Shown: one piece after another, positions 1 through 51,332 of the stretch
Layout of the letters: each line of letters begins with the position of its first letter
Position numbering within the stretch: position 1 is the first letter of the stretch
From: a virus
Virus record (IMG/VR): IMGVR_UViG_3300028654_000009
DNA length: 64,000 nucleotides
Direction: 5' to 3' (one strand)
Translations under genes and position numbers: made by a program
Notes under the pieces: generated by a model
Told to the model about the DNA's origin: nothing
The model's input: only the letters and a program-made list of their open reading frames with translations
Database searches by the model: none

Positions 1-176
1 TGTGCGGTATGGATGCGTCGCAGCACGTCTTGGATGGAGGTGGGGTTGTGGCCGGCATTGCGCGGGTGTGTCATCGCCCAAGGAAACTCCAAAAGAAGCT
101 GGGCGACGATCTGCTCGGGCTCCCCCCGGAAGGTTTCGACTTCCTGAGACCAAATATTTGTAATCTTGACCGTCAT
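1..176 (-). CDS. Partial hypothetical protein (MTVKITNIWSQEVETFRGEPEQ...), runs off the window edge
   Basis: ATG at 176 overlaps the TAA of the 1344-aa gene (TAATG coupling). The frame is open to position 1. Confidence 0.7.
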   Translation of the reverse strand, partial: MTVKITNIWSQEVETFRGEPEQIVAQLLLEFPWAMTHPRNAGHNPTSIQDVLRRIHTA

Positions 177-3100: not shown

Positions 3101-4210
3101 GGTTGGGTCTTCCCTGAAACGCCTTTGATAATCCGGGTCAGAAGCGACTTGCCACCTTGCTACGGCCTGCTCGCCTTGGGGAGAAAGGTCTTGAAAGGGA
3201 TCGTAGCTGGGGAGGGCTTTGTTTAGGCCAGCGCCGCTATGGGCGATCGCGTAGGGGCTGTCTCTCGGCAACCTCTCCAAATGGGCTCCCCCATTAGGGA
3301 CCACGGCCGACACGGACCCTTCGTCTTCCGCTACATTCCGATAATAATAACCGCGCTTGGCGGCCCCTCTTTTTATGGCGCCCGCCATATAACCGTTGGC
3401 CCTAAAGTCATCGTGGGCCGACATGGGAGTGTTCGACATAGGGCCCACGATCCTGACAGGGAAGATATCTGGCTTGTGGTTTGGCGATATAGATGTCCCG
3501 TCTCCAAAGGTGGGCATCGCGGTAGCGTAATGATCTTCTGCCATAGGCCCGCTATTGTATCCGGTCCTCTGGACGCCCCTAGCTTGCAAGGTCTTGTGGC
3601 CGGCGAGCAAGGTCTTCCCATATTCTCTTGTGCCGTCCCAGCTGCCCTCTGCCGGAACACCGATTCTTGCATGCAAAGCCTGCTCTGCAGCCTTCCGGGT
3701 CCCGATATGCAGCCCCACTTTGCCGCCAACTAGCTCACCGCTCGGACTCCCATGCCACCACACCTTTTCCCTGTGGCCGTCGTTAGTGGCTTTGGCCAGG
3801 CCTTCGCCCTCTTCAACGCTGAACAACTGGCGCAGGAGGTTAGCCTCACCAGGAGGCCCTTCGAGGTTTTCCCACACGTCCCTGGGAATGCCTTTGAGCA
3901 CCGGAATCCACTTCCAGGCGCCATCCTTGACTTCCTCGTCAGGGTCATGGGTCGAATGGGCGTCACCTGAGCAGAGAGCCGAGAACAGGTGGATCATTGC
4001 GCCGGACGGATTAACTTCAGATTTGATATGCGTCAGTGACTTAGGGCGCAGGCCGGTCTCCTCGTACAGCTCCCTGGCGGCAGCTACCGTTTTGTCTTCG
4101 CCCTCGTTGAGACCCCCACCTGGCATCGTCCAGGTGCCACGGTCGGAGCGCTTCCCGAGCAAAATCTCGCCTTTCCCGTTGGTGACGAGTATGAGAGAAA
4201 CTTGCTTCAT
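176..4210 (-). CDS. Polyvalent multi-enzyme protein: NUDIX hydrolase, two ADP-ribosyltransferase-like domains, helical repeats and two PI3/PI4-kinase (HipA)-like domains; probable virion cargo
   Basis: NUDIX box GGGLNEGEDKTVAAARELYEETGL. WHGS...GLHIGT...YYRNVAEDEGSVS. MHRAMS...TSWT...WETIV. Two kinase signatures: DFLIDNQDRHSENLL...IDHG and DYLTGNSDRHSNNLM...IDHG. Coupled to head genes. Confidence 0.75.
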   Translation of the reverse strand: MKQVSLILVTNGKGEILLGKRSDRGTWTMPGGGLNEGEDKTVAAARELYEETGLRPKSLTHIKSEVNPSGAMIHLFSALCSGDAHSTHDPDEEVKDGAWKWIPVLKGIPRDVWENLEGPPGEANLLRQLFSVEEGEGLAKATNDGHREKVWWHGSPSGELVGGKVGLHIGTRKAAEQALHARIGVPAEGSWDGTREYGKTLLAGHKTLQARGVQRTGYNSGPMAEDHYATAMPTFGDGTSISPNHKPDIFPVRIVGPMSNTPMSAHDDFRANGYMAGAIKRGAAKRGYYYRNVAEDEGSVSAVVPNGGAHLERLPRDSPYAIAHSGAGLNKALPSYDPFQDLSPQGEQAVARWQVASDPDYQRRFREDPTRENIPRMEGPARVRGLHKLSGKTQVKVHPDGTRSFLMHRAMSPAEAQSAVGPAHVSHDRKTSWTPIVGAPPGELYSILHNFKREYKGPITSAWIHQNDIHAMLPMWGAVHPRAEDNAQWAKENDFSHSTKPAGPGYQSPHWETIVGPHKSQLATPEEHEKAFAEDEATLDGRINDRVKTPAFSWKGKKDLKDYVKKHEPSEAAHLLEHPDPIERSLALKMDSTDPTDVANAILDPDHNVYKTAFYHPLSNLALRVLAHSTRDHEGNPVFHRHEDLMADPRLTDEHLHHMIEATQDDPSLPIQVAAAHIEKVRGHSKYPKLRMAKAVIDNANDFAEEVKAPHLSNPAAEEPMPHHHYSVEAYRQGMAAHVKPERSSGIYDHADKTIDKLSRGGDPKMIYKLPVKGYAKAQKFIVKPYSKHGFMPGWAENTNQAMYHAAGIGRLHQETFTAPHGYGDWMVPAQVIRAEPAKDIGNTSFKRDHLPTNQADIRKIQLMDFLIDNQDRHSENLLVRPDKTLLAIDHGSAFSYAAGHNRPGSFPQDRDYQIPGLNSWDARHVLPWYDENKLPIQEAFEKRLENVTDPRAKYNLRAGFQKRINWLNKRVEEHRRGRDPKWKAALEPLLGDDGMMSKALAGGKDQLMGVFGHQGFDATLGAKMIHNSLMKAHPAAHQNDVNTFEKNLNDSNNTHEPTMVWEGRGPDGKGDIEPKAVYQHGGKRYMVKPASNQQTPLSAWNELTNQAMYHAGGIGHLHQKVHATQLNIPGGKGNIQERLHNPALVVHMEPGVKSLHQAFSDVGSGYEPGRVADRPEAREAMRRIAIMDYLTGNSDRHSNNLMIQPNGLPLAIDHGGLFDGGHRPVMDHSRLLTHNAALVMGGLPGENPEAWKGTWDWFDKNKGAMLDKFREHANMIPEHYNEGAQEVIPGFETNRFNKKQVMADAEKRFQDIDQYRKPKDKKWYDPLGEQGEQPEYESLGALE

Positions 4211-5567: not shown

Positions 5568-5987
5568 ATGCGTTATGTCTTACCTTTGCTGGCGATCCTG
5601 CTGACGGCCTGCCCTCCCAAGGCACTTCCACAAGACCCCCAAATGGTCCAGGCGGTCCAGATTGCGTGGAGCTATTACAAGCTCCCAGGGAAGCCCCCTA
5701 CGTACGTCCTGATGCAGGGCGCGGCCCTTACGTGCAGGAATAGCCCGGGCACAGAAATGGTTGGCTGGGGATGTAAGGGCGTGGTTCACCCAGGCTGCAC
5801 TTGCGTCGCCGGCACGGAAGACGGGGCGAGCTTTGCTATTGCTCGGGTGGATAATCAGCCGTGGCACACGACTGCAATTTGTCACGAAGCCCAGCACGCT
5901 GCTGTGGGCAACTACAACCATACGCAACCAGCCTGGGACAACCTGTTGCTCCCCTGCCAGGCCGCTCAGACTGCCGCCGGGCTCTAG
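5568..5987 (+). CDS. Lipoprotein with HExxH zincin-like motif
   Basis: Signal and lipobox MRYVLPLLAILLTA-C. CHEAQH motif. Several Cys residues. Confidence 0.65.
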   Translation: MRYVLPLLAILLTACPPKALPQDPQMVQAVQIAWSYYKLPGKPPTYVLMQGAALTCRNSPGTEMVGWGCKGVVHPGCTCVAGTEDGASFAIARVDNQPWHTTAICHEAQHAAVGNYNHTQPAWDNLLLPCQAAQTAAGL

Positions 5988-6529
5988 TCCTCTTCAGAAC
6001 TCTTTCGGCTCTCCCAGAATTCTTCGAGTTCTCTGTCCCTTTCGGCCAACGTAGTTCCCAGTAGGTCATCGAGGGCGCCGTCATCATAGGTGCCCGTTGC
6101 AAGTGCCTTCCCGAAGAATCCACTAACCTCATTTACGAACGCTGTTGGAGACAGCAGCTCCCTTGGGGTGGGCATGGTCCCGGGGCTGACGTGGTGGAGG
6201 CGTTCAAACTTCTCTCCTAGATCAAACCACCACTCAATCTCCTTGCCTAGGTCGATAGCAAGGATGATTTCGAGTTCCATCCCCTCACTTATGGCCCCTC
6301 CGACGATATAAACAGCAACACGGTCAGAGGTTGCCAAATACGCCTGGGCGGCGATGATTCCTAGCTGTCTGTCCACTTCTTTGGTGTCGTCTAGAAATTG
6401 CGTGTAATACCCGTGTGGAGCAAAGGGCGCTCTCCCCATGCTCAGCTGGTGAGTTGCATACCGATGGCTCTTAAGGATGTTCCCCGAAACTTCGCCCCGC
6501 AGCCTGCTGCAAACGAATACCGTTTCCAT
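5984..6529 (-). CDS. Nucleoside 2-deoxyribosyltransferase-like (DUF4406-like) protein
   Basis: VFVCS.LRG....N, PFAPH.YYTQFLDD...DR.LG and ISEGM.LEI motifs. Confidence 0.6.
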   Translation of the reverse strand: METVFVCSRLRGEVSGNILKSHRYATHQLSMGRAPFAPHGYYTQFLDDTKEVDRQLGIIAAQAYLATSDRVAVYIVGGAISEGMELEIILAIDLGKEIEWWFDLGEKFERLHHVSPGTMPTPRELLSPTAFVNEVSGFFGKALATGTYDDGALDDLLGTTLAERDRELEEFWESRKSSEED

Positions 6530-7738: not shown

Positions 7739-9130
7739 TTACAGCTGTCCGCGCAAGTTGTCGATCAGCACGTTCTTGCGGGGCTCCACAACCGCCAAAG
7801 TCAAGAACCGCAGATGCGCCTCGGGGATGCTGAGGTCCGAGACCGCCAGCTTCACTCGGCTGTAAGGGGCAAGCTCCTTCAGCTCCATGGTGTCGCCCTG
7901 GATGAGATAGCCCGTCACGAAGCCCGGGAGCTTATTCCCGAGGTCGAGGAAGGTGGTGTTACCCGACACCGCCGAGATAACCCGACCAACGAACTTGGCC
8001 GAGGAGGCCGCGCCGCCAGCGTTCGTGCGGTACACATTGTACCCGCGAACCGTACCAGAACCCGGAGGGGTGATGGTCAGGGTGATCTTGTCGTTCAGGT
8101 TGACCGAGGCCGACGCGATAGAGGCCGAAGCCGGGGACTCGCCGTTCTCGTTGAACGAGGTGACGTAGAAGGTGTAGACGCCAGCCGCGAGAGCCCCACC
8201 GGCGCTGTTGGCAATGCCGAGGGTAGGAGCGGTAGGAGAGTTGGCGCGGGTGCGAGCCGGCTTGCTCTTACCACGAAGGAACTGGCTGGCCTCGATGTTG
8301 ACGGTACCACCAGAAACCCACTGCTTGCGGAGGTCGCCACCGGTCGAGTCCTGAGGGGACCCCGCGAGAATTACTCGCTCCTTGCCGATAACCAGCTTGT
8401 TGTAAGCCGAGAGGACAATCGGGTCAACCAGAAGGCGGTTGGCAGTGCCGAAGTTGAGAGCGCTACGAACCGCCGCGTCCTCAACCTTGCCCTGGTCCAG
8501 GGTGCCGCCGCCCGAGAGAACCACAGAGTCGTCCGAGCCGAACTCTGAGAACATAAGGTCTCGGCTGTTGACCTGCATGTCGCTCTGACGAACCTGGAGA
8601 CCGAGCCCGTGAATGTTCGGGAGGGCCGGGACGGCGAAGGGATTGCCGTCGAACACGCCCGCGTTCGAGAAGTCGTCGATACCACGGAAGCTGTCGAACT
8701 CGATGTCGCCAGCGATCTTCTTGGCAGCGTCAGCAGCGGCGCGCTCGTCGCTCTTCTTGCCGTCAACAGTCGCCACCATCGTCGAAGCGATGGTCACCCG
8801 ACGAACGTGGGAGTAGAATGCCATTGGCACCGTAACCCGCACGAAGTCCGAGGTCTCTTCCTGTCCGACCTGGCCTTCGAGCTGGGCAGACCCGCCGAAG
8901 ATACCGTAGCTGAGCTGACGGTCGAACTGGTAGAGGGTGGCCTTGCAGGACGAGGTCCCCACGATCTTCTGGAGCTTGATGTGGCTCTCATCGAAAGTGA
9001 CGTTGTTCATGACCGGGCTGCAGTCCTCGATTTGAAGGGCAGCACCCTGGGTCAGCGTACTGGGGGCTGCGTCATAGTTGCCAGCCTCCAACGCCTTCTT
9101 AAGTTCAGTAACGGCATCCATTGCGTTCAT
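7739..9130 (-). CDS. Major capsid protein (SPO1/Herelleviridae-like)
   Basis: 463 aa. N-terminal KALEAG...P...GAALQIE motif. C-terminal LAVVEPRKNVLIDN. Strong SD, downstream terminator, follows the scaffold gene. Confidence 0.9.
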   Translation of the reverse strand: MNAMDAVTELKKALEAGNYDAAPSTLTQGAALQIEDCSPVMNNVTFDESHIKLQKIVGTSSCKATLYQFDRQLSYGIFGGSAQLEGQVGQEETSDFVRVTVPMAFYSHVRRVTIASTMVATVDGKKSDERAAADAAKKIAGDIEFDSFRGIDDFSNAGVFDGNPFAVPALPNIHGLGLQVRQSDMQVNSRDLMFSEFGSDDSVVLSGGGTLDQGKVEDAAVRSALNFGTANRLLVDPIVLSAYNKLVIGKERVILAGSPQDSTGGDLRKQWVSGGTVNIEASQFLRGKSKPARTRANSPTAPTLGIANSAGGALAAGVYTFYVTSFNENGESPASASIASASVNLNDKITLTITPPGSGTVRGYNVYRTNAGGAASSAKFVGRVISAVSGNTTFLDLGNKLPGFVTGYLIQGDTMELKELAPYSRVKLAVSDLSIPEAHLRFLTLAVVEPRKNVLIDNLRGQL

Positions 9131-9172: not shown

Positions 9173-10129
9173 TTAGGCGAGGAACTTGGCGATATCGTCA
9201 ATTCCTGCGGACCCAACAACAAACTTGTTGATGAGGTCTCGGTCAGATTTGGCAAGCTTCGAAGAGGAGGTTGCCTTGTTGAGCTTCTCAATCACTTGCG
9301 ACTTCGTAAGCGACCGGGGATCAACAGGGGCCTTCTCGGCCGGCTTATCGGTGGTACCAGGCTTGCTGATGTAGGAAATCCCAGCGACAGACTTCCGCAT
9401 GACCTGGCGCTTGGTCACCATATCGGTGATTGCCTTGATGGTCTCGGCCATGGCCACTTCCTGCTTGGCAAGCTGGTCGTCCTTCTCTTTGATCGACTTG
9501 CGCAGCTTGCTGATTTCAGACATCTGAGACTTGGCCATTCCGCCGTTCCCGTCATTGGGAGTCCCAGTGCTGATTTCGCCCTTGCCGATTCCCGGCGGAG
9601 GACCGCCAGCTCCCGGCGGAGGACCGCCGGCCGAAGCCTCGGGGCCCGGGGGAGGGCCGGCCGATGCGTCAGGGCCCGGAGGGCCTGCAGAGGCCTCAGG
9701 ACCGCCCGCCTCGGGGCCGCCACCCTGCGATTCCATCGCCATGAGGGCGGCGTGGGCTGCCATCAGGTGCATCTTCAGCTCTTCAGGCGGGAGCTTCATG
9801 TACTCGGCCTGGAGTGCTTCCGGAGTGGCGCCGGCATCTGTCGCCGGGTCCTGGCCGCCGTCTGGACCGCCGTCCATCGGGGGCGCTGAGCCCTCGGCAG
9901 AAGCGTCGGCAGAAGCGTCGGGAGCGCCAGAATCCTCGGGACCGGCGCTCGACTGCTCGCCCGGAGGTCCGTCAGTCGCGCTTCCGTCCGGAGTGGTCTC
10001 GGCAGTGGTCTCTTCGCCAGGGTCGGCCTTGGAAAGGGTCACTTCCTCCGTATCGGACTTGAGCATGACGGCGACATCGTTAGTCACCTGCTCAAGCAAC
10101 TTGTTGATTTGAGATTTCGAGAGCTTCAT
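9173..10129 (-). CDS. Capsid scaffold/assembly protein
   Basis: Acidic, P/G-rich with coiled coil, directly upstream of MCP. Many [LM]xK[SA] motifs. Confidence 0.75.
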   Translation of the reverse strand: MKLSKSQINKLLEQVTNDVAVMLKSDTEEVTLSKADPGEETTAETTPDGSATDGPPGEQSSAGPEDSGAPDASADASAEGSAPPMDGGPDGGQDPATDAGATPEALQAEYMKLPPEELKMHLMAAHAALMAMESQGGGPEAGGPEASAGPPGPDASAGPPPGPEASAGGPPPGAGGPPPGIGKGEISTGTPNDGNGGMAKSQMSEISKLRKSIKEKDDQLAKQEVAMAETIKAITDMVTKRQVMRKSVAGISYISKPGTTDKPAEKAPVDPRSLTKSQVIEKLNKATSSSKLAKSDRDLINKFVVGSAGIDDIAKFLA

Positions 10130-10740: not shown

Positions 10741-11085
10741 ATGTTTGAAGACAAGACGTATGAGCCGGTCACCTTTGAAACCCAACTGGAGTGCGCAGGT
10801 TGCCGCCTGCTCAAACACCACACTTTGTTCCATCAATACAGGCGGGAACGACAAAGAGTTTTTGCTAGTCGATGCAAGGCTTGCCGAAGGGAAGACCGCA
10901 TGACCAAGGTCTACCCGGAGGTCTGTGCCTGTTGCCTTCTCCATCGCCGCCTGGATAACAACCAACAGTGCAGAACCTGCAACTCTGAAGCTGGCCTGCG
11001 CGAATGCCGGGCCTGCAACAGGTTACTGCCCCTGTGGGCGTCGTTCTATGGCCGGAGCCGTAGGTGTAAGGAGTGTCGAAAATGA
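10741..11085 (+). CDS. Cys-rich zinc-finger protein
   Basis: Six CxxC pairs. Likely leaderless start at 10741. Confidence 0.6.
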   Translation: MFEDKTYEPVTFETQLECAGCRLLKHHTLFHQYRRERQRVFASRCKACRREDRMTKVYPEVCACCLLHRRLDNNQQCRTCNSEAGLRECRACNRLLPLWASFYGRSRRCKECRK

Positions 11086-11948
11086 GCGGCCGGCCTCCAG
11101 CGCTCGATCCGAAACATCTGGGCACCGTAATGGAGCTTTACGGCTCCGGGCTGGGAACTACCAAAATTGGAAAGCAACTAGGGGTAAGCTCCAGGGCGGT
11201 TCGCTACTTGATGAAACAGAGCGGCATCCCCCTCAGGAGGGATGATTTCGCCAAACTAGTTATCAATGACGGCTTCTTCGACGAAATTGACACGCCAGAG
11301 AAGGCATATTGGCTGGGCATATTGATTACCGATGGGAATGTGTCTGGGACCCGAATAACGCTGAACCTGAAAGATCGGGAGCATCTGGTAAAGTTCGCTG
11401 AAGCTCTAGGAGGCGGCCAGACACTATCTATCAAAGCAAAACACAAACAAATGGAAGGTCGGGATGTGGTTTGCTTCAACCTCCAGTTTAGAAGCAAACA
11501 CATGGCCGGAGCGCTGTCAAAATACGGGGTCGTCCCTCGCAAAAGTGCAACATCATACCCATGGAACGGTCCGGCTGAATTGATGCCACACTTTTGGAGA
11601 GGGTGTGTGGACGGCGATGGGTGGATTACTGAGATAAAGCCAGGTAGGTTTGCTATTGGTCTGTGTGGAACAAAAGCGATGACACAAGCGTTCTCAGACT
11701 TTTCTTATTCTGTCACTGGGGTTGCTCACAAAATCAAAGCACAGGGCAACATTTTTGTTTGCAGCGTCGGCAGCATAGAGGTGGTCCGAAAGTTGGCAAT
11801 TTGCCTGTATGGAAACCTAGATAAGGCTAGTAGCCTTGACAGAAAGCTGGATAAAGCTATTTTGGCGATGGGGGCTTTGGTCCAGCAACCCCCGCCTGGG
11901 CGCCCGAAGAAGGCAAAGCCCCAGCTGGTGGGGCCCCAGAATCAATAG
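11082..11948 (+). mobile_element. Free-standing LAGLIDADG homing endonuclease with N-terminal HTH
   Basis: AYWLGILITDGNV and HFWRGCVDGDGWI motifs. Antisense to the structural operon. Confidence 0.85.
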
Positions 11949-14900
11949 GCATAGGTCCTTCATGTCCTGGTACCAAACTGTGGACAAAATTCGGAGTTTT
12001 TTGAGGCGAGTACATTGCTTTCCGTTTTGTCCCCAAAACCTTGTTGAACAGGCTCGGTGCTGCAAACTTTTGCTCCTTTGCCATACCCAAAGCTTTGTCT
12101 GCTGTTTCGAAGTTGTGGCCGAGACCAAACGACATTGACAGCTTGTGCTGGCCATTGACCGGAGGAAGGGCTTCCAACCCGGCCTTTGCGTGTCGGATAA
12201 ATTGCGCTGCGTGCTCGTGCGTAGGTGCCCAGAACGACATTTCGTCTCCTCCGCTGCGCCATGCCTTCCCCGTCCCCACCTTAGCCGCTGCATCACGAAA
12301 CGCTCCGCCCATAGCCTTGATAGCACTGTCGCCAGCATCGTGACCGTGGATGTCGTTCACCTGCTTGAAGCTGTTCCCGTCAGCGGACACCCAAACACCA
12401 GGCCGGTTCTCCTCGCGAAATTCCGACGCAGCCCTCTTGTTACCGATGCCCGGTATCATCGGGTCGCCGTAAAATCCATGAACCAGGGCTCTGGTAATCG
12501 GGTGGTCGTGCCCATGAATCTGACGTGCCTGAGCGATAGCCGTACGGTGATCGGGCACCGTAGGCTCGGGGGGCAGGTGTAGGGTCTCCTCGTCCTTCCT
12601 CATTTCGGAAGACATTTTCTTGTATCGCACAGTACCAATTCCGGTCTTGGCATTGTGTAAGATTAGCTGAAGTTCGCCCTCGGTCAAGGCGTGGCCGTCC
12701 ATCGCTGCTCCATGCGGCCCAAACTCAATCGTGTGTGGCTTGACCATGCCCGGTCGGTGGAACTCGAACACCGAATTAGGCTTCGGCATCGGCATTTTCA
12801 TGACCGTCAGCTCTGGAACCGGATTGGGCTTCGCGACCTCGGTGGAGGGGGTCGTTTCGGTGACCGAGAAATTGGGACTCCACTTGAGGCCATGAAGCCC
12901 AGCGATAGCCGAAGCGTCCATCTTGCCCTCGGGAACCATTGCATGCAGAAGGCCGTGGTAGTCTTCCAGGTGGTGGACGACATCACGACTGACCGAGAAC
13001 CGGCCCGCCGGGTGAATTTTGTCGCCATGCTTGATGCCTACCGAATAGATAGTCGGCATATCAATTTTGGGCTCAATGGCGTCCGCAATATCTTTCCTCA
13101 GGTCGATGAGAGCTGCTTCCATCTCCCTGGCCTTGGCCAAGAACTCCATGTTCTGGCCATTCCTCTCTCGATGCTCGGCAGCTTCGAGGAGCTTGGGGAC
13201 CAAGTGGTGATAATACAAGAACTGAGCGGGGATCTCTCCGTACTTTTCCACATAGCTTTGGTGAACCAATGCCGTGCGCAAAGACGTTCCGGAATCGGGC
13301 TCGTCACTCTTCTGGACCGGATCAATCCAAGGCTTGATAGAGTCCCAAAATGGTTCATGGTGGGTCCCCGACTGCTTGCCCTTGTTGGTCATACCCACAA
13401 ACTGCTCGTGCGGACGAATCGTAATCCAGTGTCGCCAGAAAGCAGGGAACAAGGCGTCCTTGGGGTCCTCGAACGTTGAACCCCACTTTGGGTGATTAAG
13501 AGTGTATTTTACGGCCGGGTGGTTCTTGGCGTACCAGTCGTTATACGGCCTCATTATGGTATCGATGTTGTTGGGGTTCCACAGCATGTTCTTCAGGTAA
13601 GTGAGGGTCCGCTTATCTTTCATTACGTGCAGACCGAACATGTTGCGGATAAAGTGAGTATCAGGTACAACCGAGTCGCCACCACCCAACATCCCATAGG
13701 TGTAAAGACCAGTTTTGACCGCAAGACCCGGGACAGCGGTAAACGGAGACTCCCCTGGGTCAGGTTTACCCAGCAGTTTAGCTCGCTCACGCTTGGCCTC
13801 CCACAGTTGACCCTTGTGTTTGTTTCCCATTAGCTCGGAAACGGCGTCGAGGGCGTGATGACGGTGTCGGGATACCAGGTCGACGAGACCGTGATGCAAA
13901 GAATGATAACGAGATAAGTTTTTGAATGACCCTTCCATCAGGGGAGTCGTGCCGGGCAGCTCGCCAGCATACCGACCAGCGGCCGTTGGGTCGCCTGGGA
14001 ACTCTCCCCATTCATCGTGGCGAATACCGATACGGTTGCCCACATAATAGGCCGGGTTTGTAGCGAACGCTTCTTTACCGGTCTCGGGCAGCGTATTCGG
14101 AGAGTCCAATTCTCTGAATTTTGGCTCAATCGCCGAGAAGCCCGGATTTCTCGGATCAAGACCGGTGGCGTGCATGGCGTCCACAAGTCTAGCGTACTGT
14201 AGCTCCTGCACCGGGACCGGCCGATTCGGAGACAGCTGGGCAAACATCACGGCATGCATGATGACCTCTGGCGGTAACTTACCGGCCTTGATCAACTTAT
14301 GAACCTTGCTCCAGTTGGTCATAGCAGTGTCCATGGCCTTTTCGACTTCTGGAGACTTCAACAATTTCTCATAATTCGCAGCCGATTCTGGGCCATCATC
14401 AGAGGGGAGATAGGCTTTGAAACTTCCCATGGGGGTCCGCAAAACGCCTTTTTTGGGATCAAAAGAGGGGTGTTTGACAGATGGATTGGGGCGTATTTTG
14501 GTTCCTCGGAAGGTGGCAGCCGTAAATTTTGGGGCCTTAGCTTCTTCCTGTTCACTGTCGTCGAAATCCTCAAGGATCGGCTTGTCGGGTTTCGGGGCCT
14601 CCGGGGGCGTCGCAGGCGCGTCGCCCTCTCGCTTAGCCAGAGACTTCTTTACGGTGTACGCCTCCGCGATGTCGGCAAAGTGATTGAGAAAATCGTCCGA
14701 CACTTCCGGGAGCTTCGCCTTGGCAAACCCCATGAACTCGCTCCGCGTAAATTTTCGATTACCGAAATCTCGCAAAACAGCCTTGCAGGTATTCCTGATT
14801 CGGTCGTCTACGTGTTCCTTCTGGAGAGCGGCGCCTCCAGTGAGAGAAGATGGAGCCCCTCCACCCATGCCGGCCTCTATCGCCTTGCGCACAGTCGAAA

Positions 14901-15579
14901 GAACCATCGCAGACCGAAGCAAATTGAGAGAAGCCTCGGCCTTGGAATCAATGATTTCGACCTCGGTCTCGTACCCTGATAGTTGGGCGTACTCGGGGTC
15001 GATTATGGACGTGTTTTCAGACTTCTTGAAGCCTTCGGGGGCGTTGGGGTCGGATAGCAGAATGGTGTCGCAAGCTTTGAGACAGGGTTTGATAGTAATC
15101 GCGACTCTGCGGAAGATGCATTGCTTGATAGTGTTACCCTCTTTCTTGAGGGTAGAGCCTTCGATGCTAAACCGACACAGGATCTTCTCGTCATTGGCCA
15201 CAGCGTCTCGAATTTGGGCGGCAACGGCCATGGCCTCGGCGTGTCCCGCTCCGTCATACAGACGGACTACCCCAAAAAGGTAGGGCACTCTGACCTGGTC
15301 CCAGAATTTCTCTTGCTCTGTGGTCTCGCAATCTCCCTTCTTGAAGATTTTTTTAACATAGATGACACGGCCAATGGTTTCCTTACCAAAGCCAGTTTCG
15401 GCGTCAACGTGTTCCCAGTTAACGGTAGCTGTCCCCTCTTCTGCACTAGAAATATCAATACCGTCTAGCTCGACAGTCTCACCGCTGCTATCAATAAGTT
15501 CAGCACTGAAGATGCCTCCCAGCAACATCCCAGTTTTGGATTCTTTCGGCTGGTCTCTTGGATTGCTCATGATATCCAA
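11857..15579 (-). CDS. Prohead protease polyprotein fused to an HhH-GPD glycosylase-like domain and a GGDEF diguanylate cyclase
   Basis: Protease motifs DSSGE, NWEH, FSIEGS and VAITIKPC. HhH VPGLAVKT...VVPDTHFIR. GGDEF motif ADGNSFKQVNDIHGHDAGD...RSGGDEM. The start may be the ATG at 15570. Confidence 0.85.
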   Translation of the reverse strand: MDIMSNPRDQPKESKTGMLLGGIFSAELIDSSGETVELDGIDISSAEEGTATVNWEHVDAETGFGKETIGRVIYVKKIFKKGDCETTEQEKFWDQVRVPYLFGVVRLYDGAGHAEAMAVAAQIRDAVANDEKILCRFSIEGSTLKKEGNTIKQCIFRRVAITIKPCLKACDTILLSDPNAPEGFKKSENTSIIDPEYAQLSGYETEVEIIDSKAEASLNLLRSAMVLSTVRKAIEAGMGGGAPSSLTGGAALQKEHVDDRIRNTCKAVLRDFGNRKFTRSEFMGFAKAKLPEVSDDFLNHFADIAEAYTVKKSLAKREGDAPATPPEAPKPDKPILEDFDDSEQEEAKAPKFTAATFRGTKIRPNPSVKHPSFDPKKGVLRTPMGSFKAYLPSDDGPESAANYEKLLKSPEVEKAMDTAMTNWSKVHKLIKAGKLPPEVIMHAVMFAQLSPNRPVPVQELQYARLVDAMHATGLDPRNPGFSAIEPKFRELDSPNTLPETGKEAFATNPAYYVGNRIGIRHDEWGEFPGDPTAAGRYAGELPGTTPLMEGSFKNLSRYHSLHHGLVDLVSRHRHHALDAVSELMGNKHKGQLWEAKRERAKLLGKPDPGESPFTAVPGLAVKTGLYTYGMLGGGDSVVPDTHFIRNMFGLHVMKDKRTLTYLKNMLWNPNNIDTIMRPYNDWYAKNHPAVKYTLNHPKWGSTFEDPKDALFPAFWRHWITIRPHEQFVGMTNKGKQSGTHHEPFWDSIKPWIDPVQKSDEPDSGTSLRTALVHQSYVEKYGEIPAQFLYYHHLVPKLLEAAEHRERNGQNMEFLAKAREMEAALIDLRKDIADAIEPKIDMPTIYSVGIKHGDKIHPAGRFSVSRDVVHHLEDYHGLLHAMVPEGKMDASAIAGLHGLKWSPNFSVTETTPSTEVAKPNPVPELTVMKMPMPKPNSVFEFHRPGMVKPHTIEFGPHGAAMDGHALTEGELQLILHNAKTGIGTVRYKKMSSEMRKDEETLHLPPEPTVPDHRTAIAQARQIHGHDHPITRALVHGFYGDPMIPGIGNKRAASEFREENRPGVWVSADGNSFKQVNDIHGHDAGDSAIKAMGGAFRDAAAKVGTGKAWRSGGDEMSFWAPTHEHAAQFIRHAKAGLEALPPVNGQHKLSMSFGLGHNFETADKALGMAKEQKFAAPSLFNKVLGTKRKAMYSPQKTPNFVHSLVPGHEGPMPIDSGAPPAGALPSSGAQAGVAGPKPPSPK

Positions 15580-15597: not shown

Positions 15598-15801
15598 TTA
15601 ATTCGTCTCGAAACGGACAGCCGAAACGACGCGCTGGATCTGGACGTCTTCGACATCACAAGGAGCCAGGTCGTTCTTCCCGATGACATCCGCCCATTCG
15701 TCAAGCTCTTCTGGAGGCGGCGGTCTGAAGTCGTCGGCCACTTGGATCTCGTAAACGGAAGTGGCCATCTCCTGGACTACTACACGGTAGGTCTTACTCA
15801 A
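15598..15801 (-). CDS. Small hypothetical protein
   Basis: TTG start with GGGGAG SD. Fills the gap between MuF and the protease. Confidence 0.5.
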   Translation of the reverse strand: MSKTYRVVVQEMATSVYEIQVADDFRPPPPEELDEWADVIGKNDLAPCDVEDVQIQRVVSAVRFETN

Positions 15802-16573
15802 CGTCTCCCCCTTCTCTTTGTTGTTTGTATTCGTCGTGGTCCTTGGACTTGAAAGTGACGAAACCGTTGCTATTAAAACCAAATCCGGGCATGAGGATGG
15901 TCATGCTGCACCTACAATTTGGGTGCAGGACGGTACAGGGATGATCGTCGCCCCGCTTCCAGTAGCCTGAGCCCACCTCGGACAGTTTCCACACCCTGGG
16001 GGTAGTCTGGTCCGGCAAAAGGAACAAGCTCGTGCAGTCTTCGCACCGAGACTTGTCCCTGACCGTCACCCAAAACACTGTCGGGTCTTGCTGGCTGGTA
16101 GCCGCAGCGATTTTTGAGATTCCGTCAAGAGTGCCCATATTCCGAGCGCGGGTGGACTCTGTATCGACGATTCGGCGCACGTCCGACGTGACTTTACCCA
16201 TGACCTCGCCAAGCTCGTCACCCAGAACCTGGTGAAAATTGGCGCTTTCGCCTTTGGCCTCAGCATCATGAAGGGTGGCCTGGACCGTGTGTACGATTTT
16301 GGCCTTCGCCAGCTCACGGTGAGCGTCGAGGTATTGTTCGGCGACGGATTTCAGGCTGTCCCGAAGCTTCTCCGAGGGAGTAAACCCTTCGCTCCTGGTG
16401 GCGTTGTCAAACAGCCCTGGGAGGCTCAGGGTGTCGTTGTGAAGCTTGACACCCACACGGATAGTCTTGTCCTTGCCTGGACCCAGGAAACGCTGTTTAG
16501 CCCTCTGGAATAGGCCGTCGATCGCCGCGTGAATGGCGTTGATGGCCTTCTTCGTGAGGATGAACCGAGGCAC
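15794..16573 (-). CDS. MuF-like minor head/head morphogenesis protein
   Basis: TE..RA.N.G, D...C..C and HPNCRC motifs. Confidence 0.8.
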   Translation of the reverse strand: MPRFILTKKAINAIHAAIDGLFQRAKQRFLGPGKDKTIRVGVKLHNDTLSLPGLFDNATRSEGFTPSEKLRDSLKSVAEQYLDAHRELAKAKIVHTVQATLHDAEAKGESANFHQVLGDELGEVMGKVTSDVRRIVDTESTRARNMGTLDGISKIAAATSQQDPTVFWVTVRDKSRCEDCTSLFLLPDQTTPRVWKLSEVGSGYWKRGDDHPCTVLHPNCRCSMTILMPGFGFNSNGFVTFKSKDHDEYKQQREGGDVE

Positions 16574-17481: not shown

Positions 17482-19605
17482 TTATTTCTTCTTGAAGTGC
17501 GCGGCCACGTCGAGAATCTCTTTTACGGCCGCCTTCGAGTCTTCCTCCCACCCGTCCATAAAGTGCTCGACAGTCTTGTTGTGTTGTGCTAAGAGCCGCC
17601 GCTTGTCCGGCGGGAGCTGCATCTCGTGCTTGCTCAGGGCGTCAAAGGCGATATCGATCGAGCGAGCCAGGTCCGAGGCTCCTGAACCAGTCGCCCCTTG
17701 CCCCGAGGCGTCTGGGCTGGCCGCCGACTGCTGTTTCTGGGTGGGCTCTGGAGTGTTCTGGCCGCCGGCTGAAGGTCCCTGTGACGGGTCTCCCCCGCCT
17801 CCTGGCTGCCCTCCTGGGGCCCCTCCACCGCCGCCCCCATCCTGTGGGGGCCCGCCACCCTGGGCCTGCTGCTGCTGGGCCATCTGGGCCTGTTGCTGCG
17901 CTTGCTGTTGCTGGACCCACTGGAACCAGAATGGGTCTCTCACGTAGGCCAGATTGGGGTCCTTGCTGGCCCCCTCACGGCCGCAGAAGTGCTCCAGAAT
18001 TTGGCCGACGGTGAAATACTGGTCGAGGTAGGTCTTGAACACCGGATTAAGCGGGATTGTGCCGCCCCATGCCTTGCCAACCGGCGGCTTCTCGACTCGC
18101 TCCGAGATGTCGTCATAGTTCATCCAGATCGACATGTCCTGCTGGGTCCGGACGGCTTCTTTCTCGGCGTTGTCGGATTCGAGACCGACGAGCCTTACCG
18201 AGGCCTTCTTGGACAACTTAGGGTCGATGAGGGGGAACAGGTGCTGGTTGATGAAGTCTTCGAAATTCTTCAGCAGCGGCCGGATACCGACATCCCGGGC
18301 CGCCGTCATTTTGTACTCGTTGTTGCTCTCCGACAGGGCCTGATTGTTGGTGCCCTTAGACAGATATGACCATCCAGGTAGTTCGTCTGGAGACATCATG
18401 AATGCAGTTAGGATTTCCCGAGCATTCAAATCGCACAGGTACTGAAACTCCATATCCTTCCCCCCGCCCGTATCGATAGGCTTCCAATCAATACTTTCAT
18501 CGACGCCACAACCAAACACTGGCATGCGCCACGAGTTATTGACGCTGTTGATGCTAGCGTTGAACTGTTGCTTGATATTGTGGATGACCTGTGGGTTAGC
18601 ATCCTCGGACGAAATCACCAGCATGCCGCGAGCGGCGCGGCCTGATTGAAAGTAGAGCTTGTTGTGTTGGGTCAGATTAATGTGCGTGGTCACCGCACTG
18701 ATGATCGTGTCGATAGGCGTGACGGGATACCCGTCTAGCTCGACGTCTGGAACTGGGTAGCAGTTGTAGACCGACATCTCCTCGGCCGTGAACGCCTGCT
18801 TAGGAGTTCCTTCTACCACCTGTACATAGCAATAGTCGCCGGCCTCGTACTTCTCTTTCTCCAGCTTTTTGCCGGTGATTCTGCAAAGAAGGTGGTACGC
18901 GTCTTGGCGAACGGACTCTAGGCTATCCTGGTTGGAAGGAGCTGCGTCATAAATCGTTCCCGCATCGACGGCGACGAAGTGGTGGAACTTTTTCTTGCCC
19001 GGAGAGTCCGGGTCATCGATCCAGACTTTTTCACAGGCGATTCGTCCGACGACCAAAGCGTTTCGGGCCTGGAGGGCCAGGAACTCGGAGAAAGTAGTAA
19101 CCATATCTAGGCCCGTCGTTTCGCCACACAGGTTGAGTTTCTTGACGGCCCGGTCGATCTGGACATTGAATTCCTTTTTCTCCTCGGGCGACATCTTGTC
19201 CAGCTCGCCTGTATTCGCCTTGATGACGAACCCCGTAGAGAAACGGTCTTCACGGGGGCGCCCGAACGAACTGAGGTGGTTCTGGCGAGCCCTTACAATG
19301 TTTGAAACCAACGAGTCCTGGATTGCAATGCGCTTGAGCATTGCGTCCGGGATGAGTCGCATCTTGGCGCGGTAAACGCCACTGTAAGTATTATTGAGAG
19401 TCGGGTCGGTTTCGAACGATAGCCTTTCTACGCTATCATTACCCTGCCCGTTAAGGACGTTGAGGATCGATTTGGTGAGACTTGGCTTGTCCTCCCCTGT
19501 GCGAACGTACACCATTGACTTGGCCAGGTTCGCAGAAAGTTGCTCCTCGTTGAGCCCCAGTCCGTAAGTCAGGTTGGAGGTGGATTTTGGGGTTCGCCTT
19601 TTCAT
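17482..19605 (-). CDS. Portal protein
   Basis: VDAGTI, GYPVTPID, YFQSG...RGML, KDMEFQ and G..PLL..EDFIN motifs. Q/G-rich C-terminal extension. Confidence 0.9.
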   Translation of the reverse strand: MKRRTPKSTSNLTYGLGLNEEQLSANLAKSMVYVRTGEDKPSLTKSILNVLNGQGNDSVERLSFETDPTLNNTYSGVYRAKMRLIPDAMLKRIAIQDSLVSNIVRARQNHLSSFGRPREDRFSTGFVIKANTGELDKMSPEEKKEFNVQIDRAVKKLNLCGETTGLDMVTTFSEFLALQARNALVVGRIACEKVWIDDPDSPGKKKFHHFVAVDAGTIYDAAPSNQDSLESVRQDAYHLLCRITGKKLEKEKYEAGDYCYVQVVEGTPKQAFTAEEMSVYNCYPVPDVELDGYPVTPIDTIISAVTTHINLTQHNKLYFQSGRAARGMLVISSEDANPQVIHNIKQQFNASINSVNNSWRMPVFGCGVDESIDWKPIDTGGGKDMEFQYLCDLNAREILTAFMMSPDELPGWSYLSKGTNNQALSESNNEYKMTAARDVGIRPLLKNFEDFINQHLFPLIDPKLSKKASVRLVGLESDNAEKEAVRTQQDMSIWMNYDDISERVEKPPVGKAWGGTIPLNPVFKTYLDQYFTVGQILEHFCGREGASKDPNLAYVRDPFWFQWVQQQQAQQQAQMAQQQQAQGGGPPQDGGGGGGAPGGQPGGGGDPSQGPSAGGQNTPEPTQKQQSAASPDASGQGATGSGASDLARSIDIAFDALSKHEMQLPPDKRRLLAQHNKTVEHFMDGWEEDSKAAVKEILDVAAHFKKK

Positions 19606-20608: not shown

Positions 20609-22666
20609 TTAGCCCAGGTCCCAGCTCAGCTTCCCGGTCTTCCCAGTCTTGCTGTTGGCCCCCTGTCCGGAGGACTTTTTCTTCTTTCCTGGCTTCTGGG
20701 ACGAACTTTCTTCCTCGCCGTAATAGCTAAACACGGAACTGCCGTCCGGATTCTCAATACGCATTGGAGGCCTCCCGACCGTGGACACTTCCTCCTCCAT
20801 GCCTCCTGTCTTGGAGGCGACGTAATTCCGCATCCAGTCCGCGTGCGGTTTAGGAGTTGTTTCAGCTTGGGCTTTCTCGTTCGAGACCGCCAGACCGCCG
20901 TCCATGCTAAACACGTTCATCACGATATACCGGACACAGTCCGCGCCGTCATCGTTATCCTCGGAAGGGATGTTGGTGGGTTTCCCGGCTGCGTCGTTTT
21001 TCCAGTGGTATTCGACGATGCTTCTGATGAAAGCTTCCATGTGTTGGTCGTCATCAATATCCAAAACGAAGAACAACTCGGGCTCGTCTGTGCCTGGGTT
21101 GAGTTTTTTCCTGACGATATTGATACCGCTTACCACAGAACCTGGCTTCTTGGACCAATTCTGTATCTTCCAGCCATTCTTGCGGAACATCTTGTTCATC
21201 TTCGGGTCAGCCGTGTCTGGGTAGATTTTTGCCTCCCAGTCTTTGTACGGCTCAGAGACCTCAAGCATCTGGTCGGGGTCAAGCCCCGGCATCATGATTG
21301 CGTTCGTGATGAACTGACGAGCGCCGTCCTTGAAACCCAGGCCGAAGGCGAAATTGTGGGTAGACCCCCAGTCGATTCCGCCATTCCACTCCACATCTCT
21401 CTGAGCCATGGCGGCCATAAACATGGCCTTGGTGTAAAGCCTCGGCTCGATCCCTTCTGGCAGCTCTCCGAAAACCTTCTCGTAGGCCTCGGCGGGGGTA
21501 AGAACATGTTTTTTGCGGTCGAACCGATGATATATCAAACCGGTCGAGGCTGGCTTAAGACAGAGGAGCTGGGCGATACCCATCTCTATGCTGTTGACTT
21601 TGATAAGCTGGTCTTGGACGTGTTTGATAGGCTTGAGGAACTTTGATGTGTTCGTTTGTCTGGTAGCCAGATTCCCCTTGCATGCAGAGAACAGCTTGCA
21701 ATTGGTCATACAGCCGGAATAGGCCATGTCCTCGGTGTATGACTCCTTCTGTTTGAAGGTGAACGAATTGTAGGTATCCTCGTCCACCGTACTACGCTCC
21801 TGTGTAGAGCGAAACACCTTCAATTTTGGCAAATCCGGGCGGTGGCGCTTGGGAGGACACGCCTCGGTCACGTCAAGGATGTTGAAGTGCTTTATCTTGA
21901 GCCCGGTCTTGTCGGCGTTGTTGATTTCGTCCTGAACGATGCCGAATGCCGTTTTCCTGGTGGAGGTCAGAATGGTTAGCGGGGGGACCTTGACACCATC
22001 CCTTCTGGTCAACGGCGTAGGAATATTCTTCGCTTCTTCGTAAGCCTTGATGTTGACGATGATGTCAATCTCATCAAGACACAGAAGGGGTGAGTGCTTC
22101 CCGTTTGTCGAGGTGATGGTTGCGACTACGATTTCTGCCTGGTTCTCTACCCTGAAGTAGCCAGAGTGCTCACGCTCAGGGAGCGAAAGGAATTCCTTTT
22201 CGGTCAACACCAGGCCCCCTGGGTTTACGGGCCGGTACAGGATTACACCCGTTTTCCTTTTGGAGTCTCCAGCAACAAACCCTCGGAGATGTTGCCTCGA
22301 CAAAAACTTCTTCAAGTATTTTTGGGCGTTGGTGCTCTGCTCCTCGATGGCCGCGAGGTGGACCACAGAGATATCAAGATGGAACAAGGCCAGGACCTCT
22401 ACCACGGACTGGGTGAGCGTTTTCCCGGCATCACGGGCAGAATAATACAACACACGCGGGGCCTCATCGCCGGTTGCGGTGTTGGGGTCATAGTGAGCGA
22501 AATGGGAATATGTCGCCCAAGCCATATCAAGCGGTGTCGTGTTGGAATCCGGGTCTACAATAGCGTCCGGAAGCTCAAGGTCCAGGTGGACGTAAATCCA
22601 GTCCTTGAGTTCCTCCCGCGTATTGCAAATCGTGAATATCGACTCGCGCATCTCGGGGTCGAGCAT
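20609..22666 (-). CDS. terL: Terminase large subunit
   Basis: Walker A SARDAGKT, Walker B LCLDEID, nuclease motif GGIDWG and C-terminal DDGADCVRY. Confidence 0.9.
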   Translation of the reverse strand: MLDPEMRESIFTICNTREELKDWIYVHLDLELPDAIVDPDSNTTPLDMAWATYSHFAHYDPNTATGDEAPRVLYYSARDAGKTLTQSVVEVLALFHLDISVVHLAAIEEQSTNAQKYLKKFLSRQHLRGFVAGDSKRKTGVILYRPVNPGGLVLTEKEFLSLPEREHSGYFRVENQAEIVVATITSTNGKHSPLLCLDEIDIIVNIKAYEEAKNIPTPLTRRDGVKVPPLTILTSTRKTAFGIVQDEINNADKTGLKIKHFNILDVTEACPPKRHRPDLPKLKVFRSTQERSTVDEDTYNSFTFKQKESYTEDMAYSGCMTNCKLFSACKGNLATRQTNTSKFLKPIKHVQDQLIKVNSIEMGIAQLLCLKPASTGLIYHRFDRKKHVLTPAEAYEKVFGELPEGIEPRLYTKAMFMAAMAQRDVEWNGGIDWGSTHNFAFGLGFKDGARQFITNAIMMPGLDPDQMLEVSEPYKDWEAKIYPDTADPKMNKMFRKNGWKIQNWSKKPGSVVSGINIVRKKLNPGTDEPELFFVLDIDDDQHMEAFIRSIVEYHWKNDAAGKPTNIPSEDNDDGADCVRYIVMNVFSMDGGLAVSNEKAQAETTPKPHADWMRNYVASKTGGMEEEVSTVGRPPMRIENPDGSSVFSYYGEEESSSQKPGKKKKSSGQGANSKTGKTGKLSWDLG

Positions 22667-50729: not shown

Positions 50730-51332
50730 TTGAAGAGCGAATCAGAAGAGGCCGAGCATGATTCTCATGACACGTCACCCGTTCCCGTAGAAATAGCAGA
50801 CATCGAGCTGCGCGAAATTTACGTGCTCGATAGCGTCTCGAATTCTATGGCTGTCGCCATCACAAAGAGTCTTAGGAGAATGGAGGCGGAAGACCCCGAC
50901 CTCCCAATCACTATCGTAATAAACTCCTGCGGAGGCGAGGATGGGGCCGGATGGGCCATCTTCGATGCCATCCAGATGTGCACACCCTTGGTGATCGGGC
51001 ATGTAATCGGGAACTGTTTTTCGATTGCAACTTTGATACTGCAGGCGTGCGACGTCAGGGCTCTTTCAAAGCATTGTCGATTTATGGTTCACTGCGGGTC
51101 GGTTAGTTACTCGGGCCCCCATCAATACATCGGCCCCTACATCAATGAGTCCAACCTGCTAAATGACCAATATTACACGACAATGGCGCAGCGAGCTAAG
51201 ATGAAACCCGCCGTCTTCCGTAGGATGTGTGAAAAGGAGACGTTCCTGTCCGCCGTGGAGGCCGTGGAGGCCAATCTTGCTGACACGGTCATCCTCCCCC
51301 GCCCCCGAAAACGCCTCAAGAAAGTTGTTTAA
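50730..51332 (+). CDS. clpP: ClpP-like protease
   Basis: INSCGG, G.CFS.A..I, FMVH and FLSA.EA....LAD motifs. Confidence 0.85.
   Translation: MKSESEEAEHDSHDTSPVPVEIADIELREIYVLDSVSNSMAVAITKSLRRMEAEDPDLPITIVINSCGGEDGAGWAIFDAIQMCTPLVIGHVIGNCFSIATLILQACDVRALSKHCRFMVHCGSVSYSGPHQYIGPYINESNLLNDQYYTTMAQRAKMKPAVFRRMCEKETFLSAVEAVEANLADTVILPRPRKRLKKVV

Follow-up and report, generated by a model that had tools for sequence, protein, structure and literature searches.

A GGDEF diguanylate-cyclase domain joined to a head-type protease in an Mx1-like phage, a possible capsid-loaded enzyme

Why should a phage carry a diguanylate-cyclase domain on the same chain as the protease of its head module? The question is raised by the gene P0001, found in a stretch of 64,000 nucleotides (the window) from the virus record IMGVR_UViG_3300028654_000009 of IMG/VR, a record of 132 kb that is ~80% complete. 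P0001 is a single open frame at 11857..15570 that encodes 1237 amino acids (aa) from an ATG at 15570; this gene and all features described below lie on the minus strand of the window unless marked (+). The stop-free frame covers 11857-15579 and an alternative TTG start at 15579 would yield 1240 aa, the ATG being the likelier start. An initial annotation of the DNA had read the locus as a GGDEF diguanylate cyclase fused to the prohead protease. That a genuine GGDEF domain is joined here to a genuine head-type protease is, after the analysis reported below, nearly certain. The presence of a protease and an apparently intact cyclase on one head-module chain suggests that the phage probably loads the cyclase into its capsid, and we assign a probability of roughly 0.5 to the reading that P0001 is the head-assembly polyprotein of a contractile-tailed phage similar to Mx1, and a "polyvalent" capsid-cargo protein.

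The GGDEF diguanylate-cyclase domain occupies aa ~1039-1175 (12055..12465). The Pfam model PF00990 matched aa 1053-1157 with 36.4 bits (E 5.5e-9; gathering cut-off 23.8 bits), a phmmer search of P0001 against the sequences of the Protein Data Bank (PDB) returned diguanylate cyclases only, and a profile built from 39 full-length relatives matched 47 GGDEF sequences of known structure, the best at E 3e-12. The AlphaFold2 (AF2) model of aa 1000-1215 reached a predicted local distance difference test score (pLDDT) of 93.7, and every Foldseek PDB match listed for this fragment was a GGDEF domain or diguanylate cyclase (probability 1.00, E 2e-8 to 7e-6), with SadC, WspR, DosC and PleD at the top. 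Alignment to WspR and GcbC revealed that the metal-binding D1067, the FK pair, N1075, the GH pair, the base-specifying D1084, R1108 and GGDE match the canonical residues. The metal- and guanine-binding motif ADGNSFKQVNDIHGHDAGD (aa 1066-1084, 12328-12384) comprises D1067...N1075...GH...D1084 at 12328-12381, and the A-site motif RSGGDEM (aa 1108-1114, 12238-12258) comprises GGDEM at 12238-12252. Both motifs, and the position of GGDEM, had been proposed in the initial annotation and were borne out by translation, by the Pfam match and by the fold, well beyond what chance would give. The residues D1067, N1075, R1108, G1110-E1113 and K1168 (a candidate counterpart of the phosphate-binding PleD K442) were invariant in the 39 full-length relatives. 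As these relatives are only 35-54% identical overall, such invariance argues for selection on the active site.

The residues N1075 and D1084 align with the guanine-specifying Asn/Asp pair of PleD (N335/D344). The position that discriminates Hypr-type enzymes, which carry Ser/Thr there, is Asp in P0001 (D1084), just as had been claimed; across 46 family copies it was Asp in 34 and Asn in 9. An alternative reading of the domain as an mCpol or Cas10 palm, prompted by the Panoptes papers, was ruled out by the GGDE and N/GHxxGD motifs and by the best matches, all of which were GGDEF diguanylate cyclases. The earlier claim that an RxxD I-site is absent was likewise correct: the RSSD of WspR aligns with K-V-G-T in P0001, and RxxD was present in 0 of the 39 aligned relatives.

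The GGDEF core is preceded by a helix pair at aa ~1008-1040 (12460..12558; residues 12-23 and 28-38 of the AF2 fragment are helical). When aa 1000-1215 were modelled as a homodimer together with two GTP molecules, the ipSAE was 0.53 versus 0.00 for the best control. Among proteins solved as same-chain pairs 20 of 30 attained this mark, among those solved as single chains 1 of 23. The dimer runs shared at least 60% of their contacts, with a partner pLDDT of at least 85. The predicted interface consists of the helix pair (aa ~1003-1049) together with GH 1079-80 and GG 1110-11, so that the predicted active sites face each other, and the contacts of lowest error (29:29, 33:33 and 12:32 in fragment numbering) lie between the paired helices. 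Since solved GGDEF dimers exist, this result may partly reflect memory of the predictor. At the other end, a C-terminal extension with the motif HSLVPGxEGP (aa ~1190-1212, 11944..12012) adds an extra strand to the GGDEF domain, and beyond it lies a tail rich in Pro, Gly and Ala. Within the extension P1196, H1200, S1201 and G1208 were invariant and modelled with pLDDT 96-98, and it is also found in the cyclase of Mx1.

P0001 thus resembles PleD, WspR, SadC and DgcB in its fold, its A-site, its metal- and guanine-binding residues and its predicted dimerising helical stalk. It differs from the bacterial enzymes by the lack of RxxD and of a recognised sensor, by a shortened first helix, by Met in place of Phe, by the extra C-terminal strand and by its viral head-module context. 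The last ~240 aa are a complete GGDEF module without an allosteric I-site and with a dimerising helix pair of its own predicted. Judging from these residues and from the model, the domain is likely to be a catalytically competent synthase of cyclic di-GMP (c-di-GMP).

The N-terminal part of the chain (aa ~17-185, 15025..15531) was assigned to the capsid-maturation proteases on the basis of the AF2 fold, VIA-align, Foldseek and the phrog_1028 matches of relatives. The AF2 model of aa 1-235 had a core pLDDT of 94-97. Its best VIA-align match was T4 gp21 (PDB entry 5jbl; Z 10.8, root mean square deviation 2.9 over 126 aa), herpesvirus assemblins followed with Z 8-10, and the next, unrelated fold (MCE) reached Z 5. 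All Foldseek matches of this model at E<=1e-3, and almost all of those listed, were herpesvirus assemblins, T4 gp21 standing lower in the list. The PHROG family phrog_1028 ("head maturation protease") was matched by 12 of the 39 relatives, with a best E of 4.9e-6. Two residues invariant in the 39 relatives, H57 (15409-15411) and S138 (15166-15168), are candidate catalytic residues, selected by this invariance. According to the predicted structure, the N-terminal ~170 aa are an assemblin/T4 gp21-fold capsid-maturation protease with a putative Ser/His active site.

The gene order agrees with this assignment. On the minus strand TerL (20609-22666), portal (17482-19605) and a MuF-like minor head protein (15794-16573), which adjoins the portal side of P0001, are followed by P0001, a 156-aa gene, a scaffold-like acidic and Pro-rich gene (9173-10129) and the major capsid protein (MCP, 7739-9130). 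The position of P0001 between portal/MuF and scaffold/MCP is the canonical prohead-protease slot, and this head-module order is common to Mx1 and to the metagenomic relatives. Fold, relatives' matches and head-module position together uphold the prohead-protease half of the initial annotation.

The database search revealed 141 relatives of P0001, at least 140 of them full-length, the largest contigs being mostly 130-180 kb. That the fusion is an assembly artefact was ruled out, since 18 loci carry it independently and at least 60 proteins in the database show it. In order to follow the GGDEF domain across the family, 80 IMG/VR loci fetched through the protease domain and three further loci were scanned with hidden Markov models made from our own alignments, and 67 loci were informative. 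The GGDEF domain was fused to the protease chain in 18 of the 67 loci and encoded by a separate open reading frame (ORF) just downstream in 27. The persistence of this association, fused or in the next gene in 45/67 loci, supports the cargo reading. No GGDEF domain was found in the other 22 loci within the 2-8 kb of available downstream sequence; these loci belong to the remotest relatives, whose protease proteins measure only 400-860 aa.

A survey of related proteases for variable C-terminal cargo, which had been suggested earlier, did reveal such variation. Most relatives carry PF00990 on the protease chain, some a PI3/4-kinase-like domain instead, and some no recognised cargo. An ADP-ribosyltransferase domain (PF03496) together with GGDEF is carried by the 1740-aa protein P0040 (L004:3195-8417), and PF26820 together with GGDEF by P0033 and P0107. 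In the kinase-type example L003 the GGDEF gene starts directly after the stop codon. In this locus and in L019, L020, L029 and L048 the protease ORF and the downstream ORF with the GGDEF domain are in the same frame and one stop codon (TAA or TGA) apart, the start codon of the second ORF abutting the stop or lying one codon further; this single-stop arrangement could reflect translational coupling or occasional read-through.

A phmmer search of the full library with aa 1000-1215 matched 87 clusters at E<=1e-30 and 272 clusters (50% identity) at E<=1e-10. The matches extend from the helix pair through the core to the C-terminal extension, and most of the matched proteins fall into groups of ~400, ~730 and 1100-1700 aa. 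The P0001-type GGDEF is a distinct subfamily, sizeable and apparently phage-borne, whose members bear publicly only automatic "GGDEF domain-containing protein" labels.

The cultured Myxococcus phage Mx1 (OR576727.2) encodes in three separate, abutting ORFs what P0001 carries on one chain. Its "putative prohead protease" (WNM70322, 1239 aa) is homologous to P0001 aa 18-844 with 38% identity, a hypothetical protein (WNM70323, 150 aa) to aa 858-980, and a "nucleotide cyclase" (WNM70324, 243 aa) to aa 1009-1211 with 37% identity. The protease ORF of Mx1 carries ~380 aa of different C-terminal cargo, and in its cyclase the Lys of FK and the His of GH are lost, whereas the P0001 copy is canonical at both places. 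The genome announcement of Mx1 annotates the cyclase without discussing it (PMC10720576).

Between the protease and the GGDEF domain, two conserved regions were recognised. The middle region (aa ~356-815, 13135..14514) is conserved across the family and also in Mx1, and had no convincing Pfam match and no PDB match. The second region, termed module B, spans ~145 aa (aa ~845-990, 12610..13047), contains the motif HHLEDYHG, is conserved directly upstream of GGDEF and had no Pfam match. It preceded GGDEF directly in 45 of the 45 GGDEF-positive loci, sharing the ORF with it in 38 and lying in an adjacent ORF in 7, and corresponds to the separate 150-aa ORF of Mx1; since the two stand side by side in all 45 loci, B-GGDEF is a conserved unit. 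Three loci carry module B without a detectable GGDEF domain. When aa 236-1005 were scanned against Pfam member by member, the best match (E 0.0046, in 2 of 39 members) was to a domain of unknown function, and a profile of this region against the PDB sequences gave no match. A known sensor domain or an HhH-GPD glycosylase in aa 236-1005 therefore had no support at the sequence level in these Pfam and PDB scans. The initial annotation had stated that the cyclase has no sensor domain and is unregulated. The statement holds in so far as no known domain was found in aa 236-1005; with a conserved module that lacks a Pfam match always preceding GGDEF, it is not acceptable as stated.

How might the modules of such a chain be separated? 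In the 39-member alignment six conserved hydrophobic-x-Lys motifs were read, here written with a slash at the candidate cut: VRK/A at aa 230, FAK/A at aa 285, LIK/A at aa 429, LAK/A at aa 814, LRK/D at aa 827 and MRK/D at aa 993. The pair LAK/A (aa 814-817) and LRK/D (aa 827-830), at 13090..13140, are candidate cut sites located where the genes of relatives are split; in the 39 relatives their Lys is conserved in 95-97% and the hydrophobic residue at -2 in 97-100%. The MRK/D motif (aa 993-996, 12592..12603) lies in the linker before the GGDEF module, where an MRKD linker motif had already been noted; its Lys and the hydrophobic residue at -2 are each found in 97% of the relatives, with A, M, D or S at P1'. 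Just after it the linker aa 1000-1009 was modelled with low confidence (pLDDT 53). In 20 loci the gene is split at a point that corresponds to P0001 aa ~830-860, and in Mx1 and six loci the ORF of a short, stand-alone cyclase begins near aa ~990-1000. Both places lie just after the last three Lys motifs (K816, K829 and K995).

A further link to the capsid was found at aa 227-255 (14815..14901), where a segment resembles the N-terminus of the MCP, with V/L-x-K/A followed by AxxAGxxxxAPSxLTGGAALQ. Comparison of VRK/AIEAG..APSSLTGGAALQ in P0001 with LKK/ALEAG..APSTLTQGAALQ at the MCP N-terminus gave a BLASTP E of 2e-7, and K232, G237, P243, A251 and L252 of the segment were invariant in the family. 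From this similarity the segment may be a shared cut site plus docking element. Moreover, the pattern [LIMVF]xK[AS] occurred 6.7 times per 1000 aa in head proteins versus 2.7 times elsewhere in the window, a 2.5-fold difference, and 9 times in the scaffold versus 1.1 expected. The Lys motifs fit a maturation protease with Lys at P1 that would cut the chain into modules, all the sites being candidates.

On these grounds the following course may be proposed. The chain would enter the procapsid via its protease and scaffold-like part, and the protease would cut it after the Lys of the conserved hydrophobic-x-Lys motifs (aa 232, 816, 829 and 995). The B and GGDEF pieces would be retained as internal head proteins and would exit with the DNA. 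In the newly infected cell a constitutive dimer would turn host GTP into c-di-GMP, with no product inhibition and before phage gene expression. Pili, exopolysaccharide (EPS) and development are under c-di-GMP control in social hosts that move on surfaces, and in a Myxococcus-like host c-di-GMP-controlled pili, EPS and motility would be expected to be disturbed, judging from general knowledge of c-di-GMP signalling. We infer packaging, cleavage, ejection and host effects from gene position and motif conservation. The odds for this mechanism of a capsid-loaded and delivered cyclase, taken as a whole, appear about even. Incorporation of the P0001 GGDEF domain into the capsid seems somewhat better supported than that, and its ejection and action in the next host is a tentative proposal that falls somewhat short of even. 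It is doubtful whether the mechanism can be extended to a globally distributed Mx1-like clade which would carry a product-insensitive cyclase with an obligate module B in the capsid, linked to the head protease and freed by Lys cuts, flooding the host with c-di-GMP. Mx1-infected cells were reported to round up after adsorption, a weak circumstantial point in favour of a delivered cyclase (PMC6070905).

Known phages and viruses offer partial parallels. Alt and the internal proteins IPI-III of T4 are taken up into the prohead, shortened by gp21 and passed into the cell along with the DNA. The T4 cargo carries a short N-terminal capsid-targeting sequence and is cleaved after Glu, whereas in the P0001 family the cargo stands on the protease chain or in the next gene and the candidate P1 residue is Lys. 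In herpesvirus UL26, P2 gpO and lambda C/Nu3 an N-terminal maturation protease is followed by a part of the same chain that is kept inside the procapsid. That C-terminal part is a scaffold, degraded or expelled, whereas the post-protease part of P0001 measures ~1050 aa, includes an enzyme domain and coexists with the separate scaffold-like gene at 9173-10129.

Several observations weigh against the reading of P0001 as a polyprotein that loads an active cyclase by means of its own protease. Its own N-terminus had no match to phrog_1028 or to any other PHROG or Pfam protease family. A search of the genome with Pfam S78 for other head proteases gave no match, but a ClpP-family protease is encoded at 50730-51332 (+), with matches to PF00574 (E 8e-27) and to a PHROG "head maturation protease" family (E 3.5e-25), so that the assemblin-fold domain is not the sole candidate maturation protease. 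This gene lies between a DnaB-like helicase and a ribonucleotide reductase in the replication module, and its product is a candidate for a second maturation protease or for a host-takeover protease. The P1' Asp of MRK/D departs from the Ala/Ser of the MCP-like site. Within the cyclase the fifth A-site residue is Met in P0001 and Phe in most relatives, and no clear counterpart of PleD R446 is seen, the sequence reading K-E-Q-K(-F) in place of K-x-x-G-R. When the core residues D1067, N1075, R1108, D1112 and E1113 were scored in 44 surveyed loci, the set was intact in 35 of the head-module GGDEF domains, including 17 of the 18 fused copies, and broken in nine (GGDRF, SGDKS, GGDCF and others), which indicates that catalysis is not the sole reason why the module stays in the head cluster. 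Module B could be a regulatory or targeting domain and might gate the cyclase. Finally, Mx1 is the only cultured relative, with just 36.6% identity to P0001.

The explanation that best survives beside capsid loading is that the cyclase acts late in the producing cell. Being produced in large amounts at that stage, the polyprotein would raise c-di-GMP there before encapsidation or without it, and would for example immobilise the cell, alter its surface against superinfection or time lysis, the protease fusion serving mere co-expression or later destruction of the cyclase. This is consistent with the location of P0001 within a late structural operon, with a module predicted to be a self-sufficient dimer that needs no activation, and with the 27 loci in which GGDEF is a separate gene and packaging is not required; moreover, the ~80%-complete 132-kb genome yielded no EAL (PF00563), HD-GYP (PF13487) or PilZ (PF07238) domain by which the signal might be undone or sensed. 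However, strict retention in the portal-to-MCP block and the 18 in-frame fused loci are hard to explain for a purely cytoplasmic enzyme, and the conserved Lys motifs at the module borders also speak against this alternative. Other cultured phages encode GGDEF domains as well, namely Bordetella FP1/CN1 and ~61-kb Pseudomonas siphophages (short matches), and a GGDEF fold was found in Bacillus G (gp350) and SP-15; all are annotated as diguanylate cyclases. Most of these are small early-region genes of different architecture, the genomic context having been checked for FP1 alone: the FP1 gene is a stand-alone, single-domain gene of ~156 aa in the early/DNA-metabolism region, has no link to head genes and no module B, and is ~30% identical to P0001 over the core only. 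Taken together, action in the producing cell is an unlikely explanation of the fused gene.

A further alternative is a mainly structural or binding role, in which the GGDEF domain is an internal head, scaffold-like or nucleotide-binding piece whose cyclase chemistry is dispensable. The nine broken-core copies that stay in place with module B point in this direction, as do the conserved C-terminal extension and N-terminal helices outside the catalytic core. Against it stand the intact canonical residues of P0001 and of 17/18 fused copies, the invariance of D1067, N1075, R1108, GGDE and K1168 in the 39 relatives, and the lack of an I-site with which c-di-GMP could be bound. For P0001 a mainly structural domain is quite improbable.

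Least probable of all is that the enzyme makes another product (cyclic GMP-AMP, c-di-AMP, linear pppGpG or another oligonucleotide) as a decoy or competitor against the cyclic-oligonucleotide-based antiphage system CBASS or type III CRISPR: the Asn in place of Asp at the base-discriminating position in 9/46 head-module GGDEF domains, the changed FK Lys and GH His of the Mx1-containing subgroup (46 aligned sequences, including P0001 and Mx1), the report that the CBASS/type III-B island of M. xanthus fails to stop Mx1, in contrast to Mx4, an outcome for which its authors suggest unknown countermeasures (PMC11506125), and the proposal by Iyer et al. of interference with host nucleotide signalling (PMC5512222) would fit it, but P0001 has the canonical N1075/D1084 guanine-reading pair and no Hypr Ser, its best structural and sequence matches are all c-di-GMP synthases, and no evidence ties the resistance of Mx1 to the cyclase gene.

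The reading of P0001 as a polyvalent capsid-cargo protein was foreshadowed. Iyer, Burroughs, Anand, de Souza and Aravind (2017, J Bacteriol; PMC5512222) described polyvalent phage proteins, for which packaging and delivery into the host at invasion were predicted, counted GGDEF among their rare components, with a possible disturbing effect on host nucleotide signalling, and listed assemblin-like peptidases as processing domains that are "always" C-terminal. P0001 resembles these proteins in that at least two unrelated enzymatic domains are combined on one polypeptide and linked to virion genes. It differs in that its assemblin-like peptidase is N-terminal (aa 17-185) and located in the prohead-protease slot. 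The B-GGDEF cassette, the alternation of fused and split genes and the Lys-motif borders are absent from the 2017 study, whose GGDEF example is a Firmicute prophage protein of an architecture unlike P0001 (PMC5512222). A literature search for a phage GGDEF domain connected with virions or with a prohead protease gave only that study and no experiment. The polyvalent, capsid-cargo idea with GGDEF is thus known, and the N-terminal head protease combined with the B-GGDEF cassette is new.

What would follow from a delivered cyclase is considerable. Phages are known to inject few enzymes, for example T4 Alt and the N4 virion RNA polymerase, and, to our knowledge, the delivery of a second-messenger synthase by a virion has yet to be demonstrated. 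If the P0001 cyclase is packaged and active, infection would open with an uncontrolled pulse of c-di-GMP, and the enzyme would be the first second-messenger synthase known as a delivered virion protein. It would then represent a new viral route to seize a bacterial signalling network or to blunt nucleotide-based immunity. The fused/split alternation and the Lys-motif borders offer a concrete model for the loading of swappable enzyme cargo via the head protease, and the large family, one member of which (Mx1) is in culture and forms plaques on M. xanthus, makes the idea directly testable.

The surroundings of P0001 contain further genes of interest. A LAGLIDADG-type homing endonuclease gene at 11073-11948 (+) is inserted directly behind P0001 and convergent to it (phrog_4645, E 1e-38; two LAGLIDADG-like motifs), and its 3' end overlaps the stretch encoding the Pro-rich tail of P0001 by ~90 nucleotides; Mx1 has only a non-coding gap there. 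A nucleoside 2-deoxyribosyltransferase-like gene lies within the head-gene block at 5984-6529 (phrog_355, E 2e-10). Downstream of the MCP gene, a 1344-aa protein encoded at 176-4210 combines a NUDIX domain (E 8e-17) with a PI3/PI4-kinase-like domain (E 4e-15), also shows a weak likeness to Fam20C kinase, and constitutes a second multi-enzyme "polyvalent" protein of the head region. Its gene is present in Mx1 and other relatives, as a NUDIX hydrolase.

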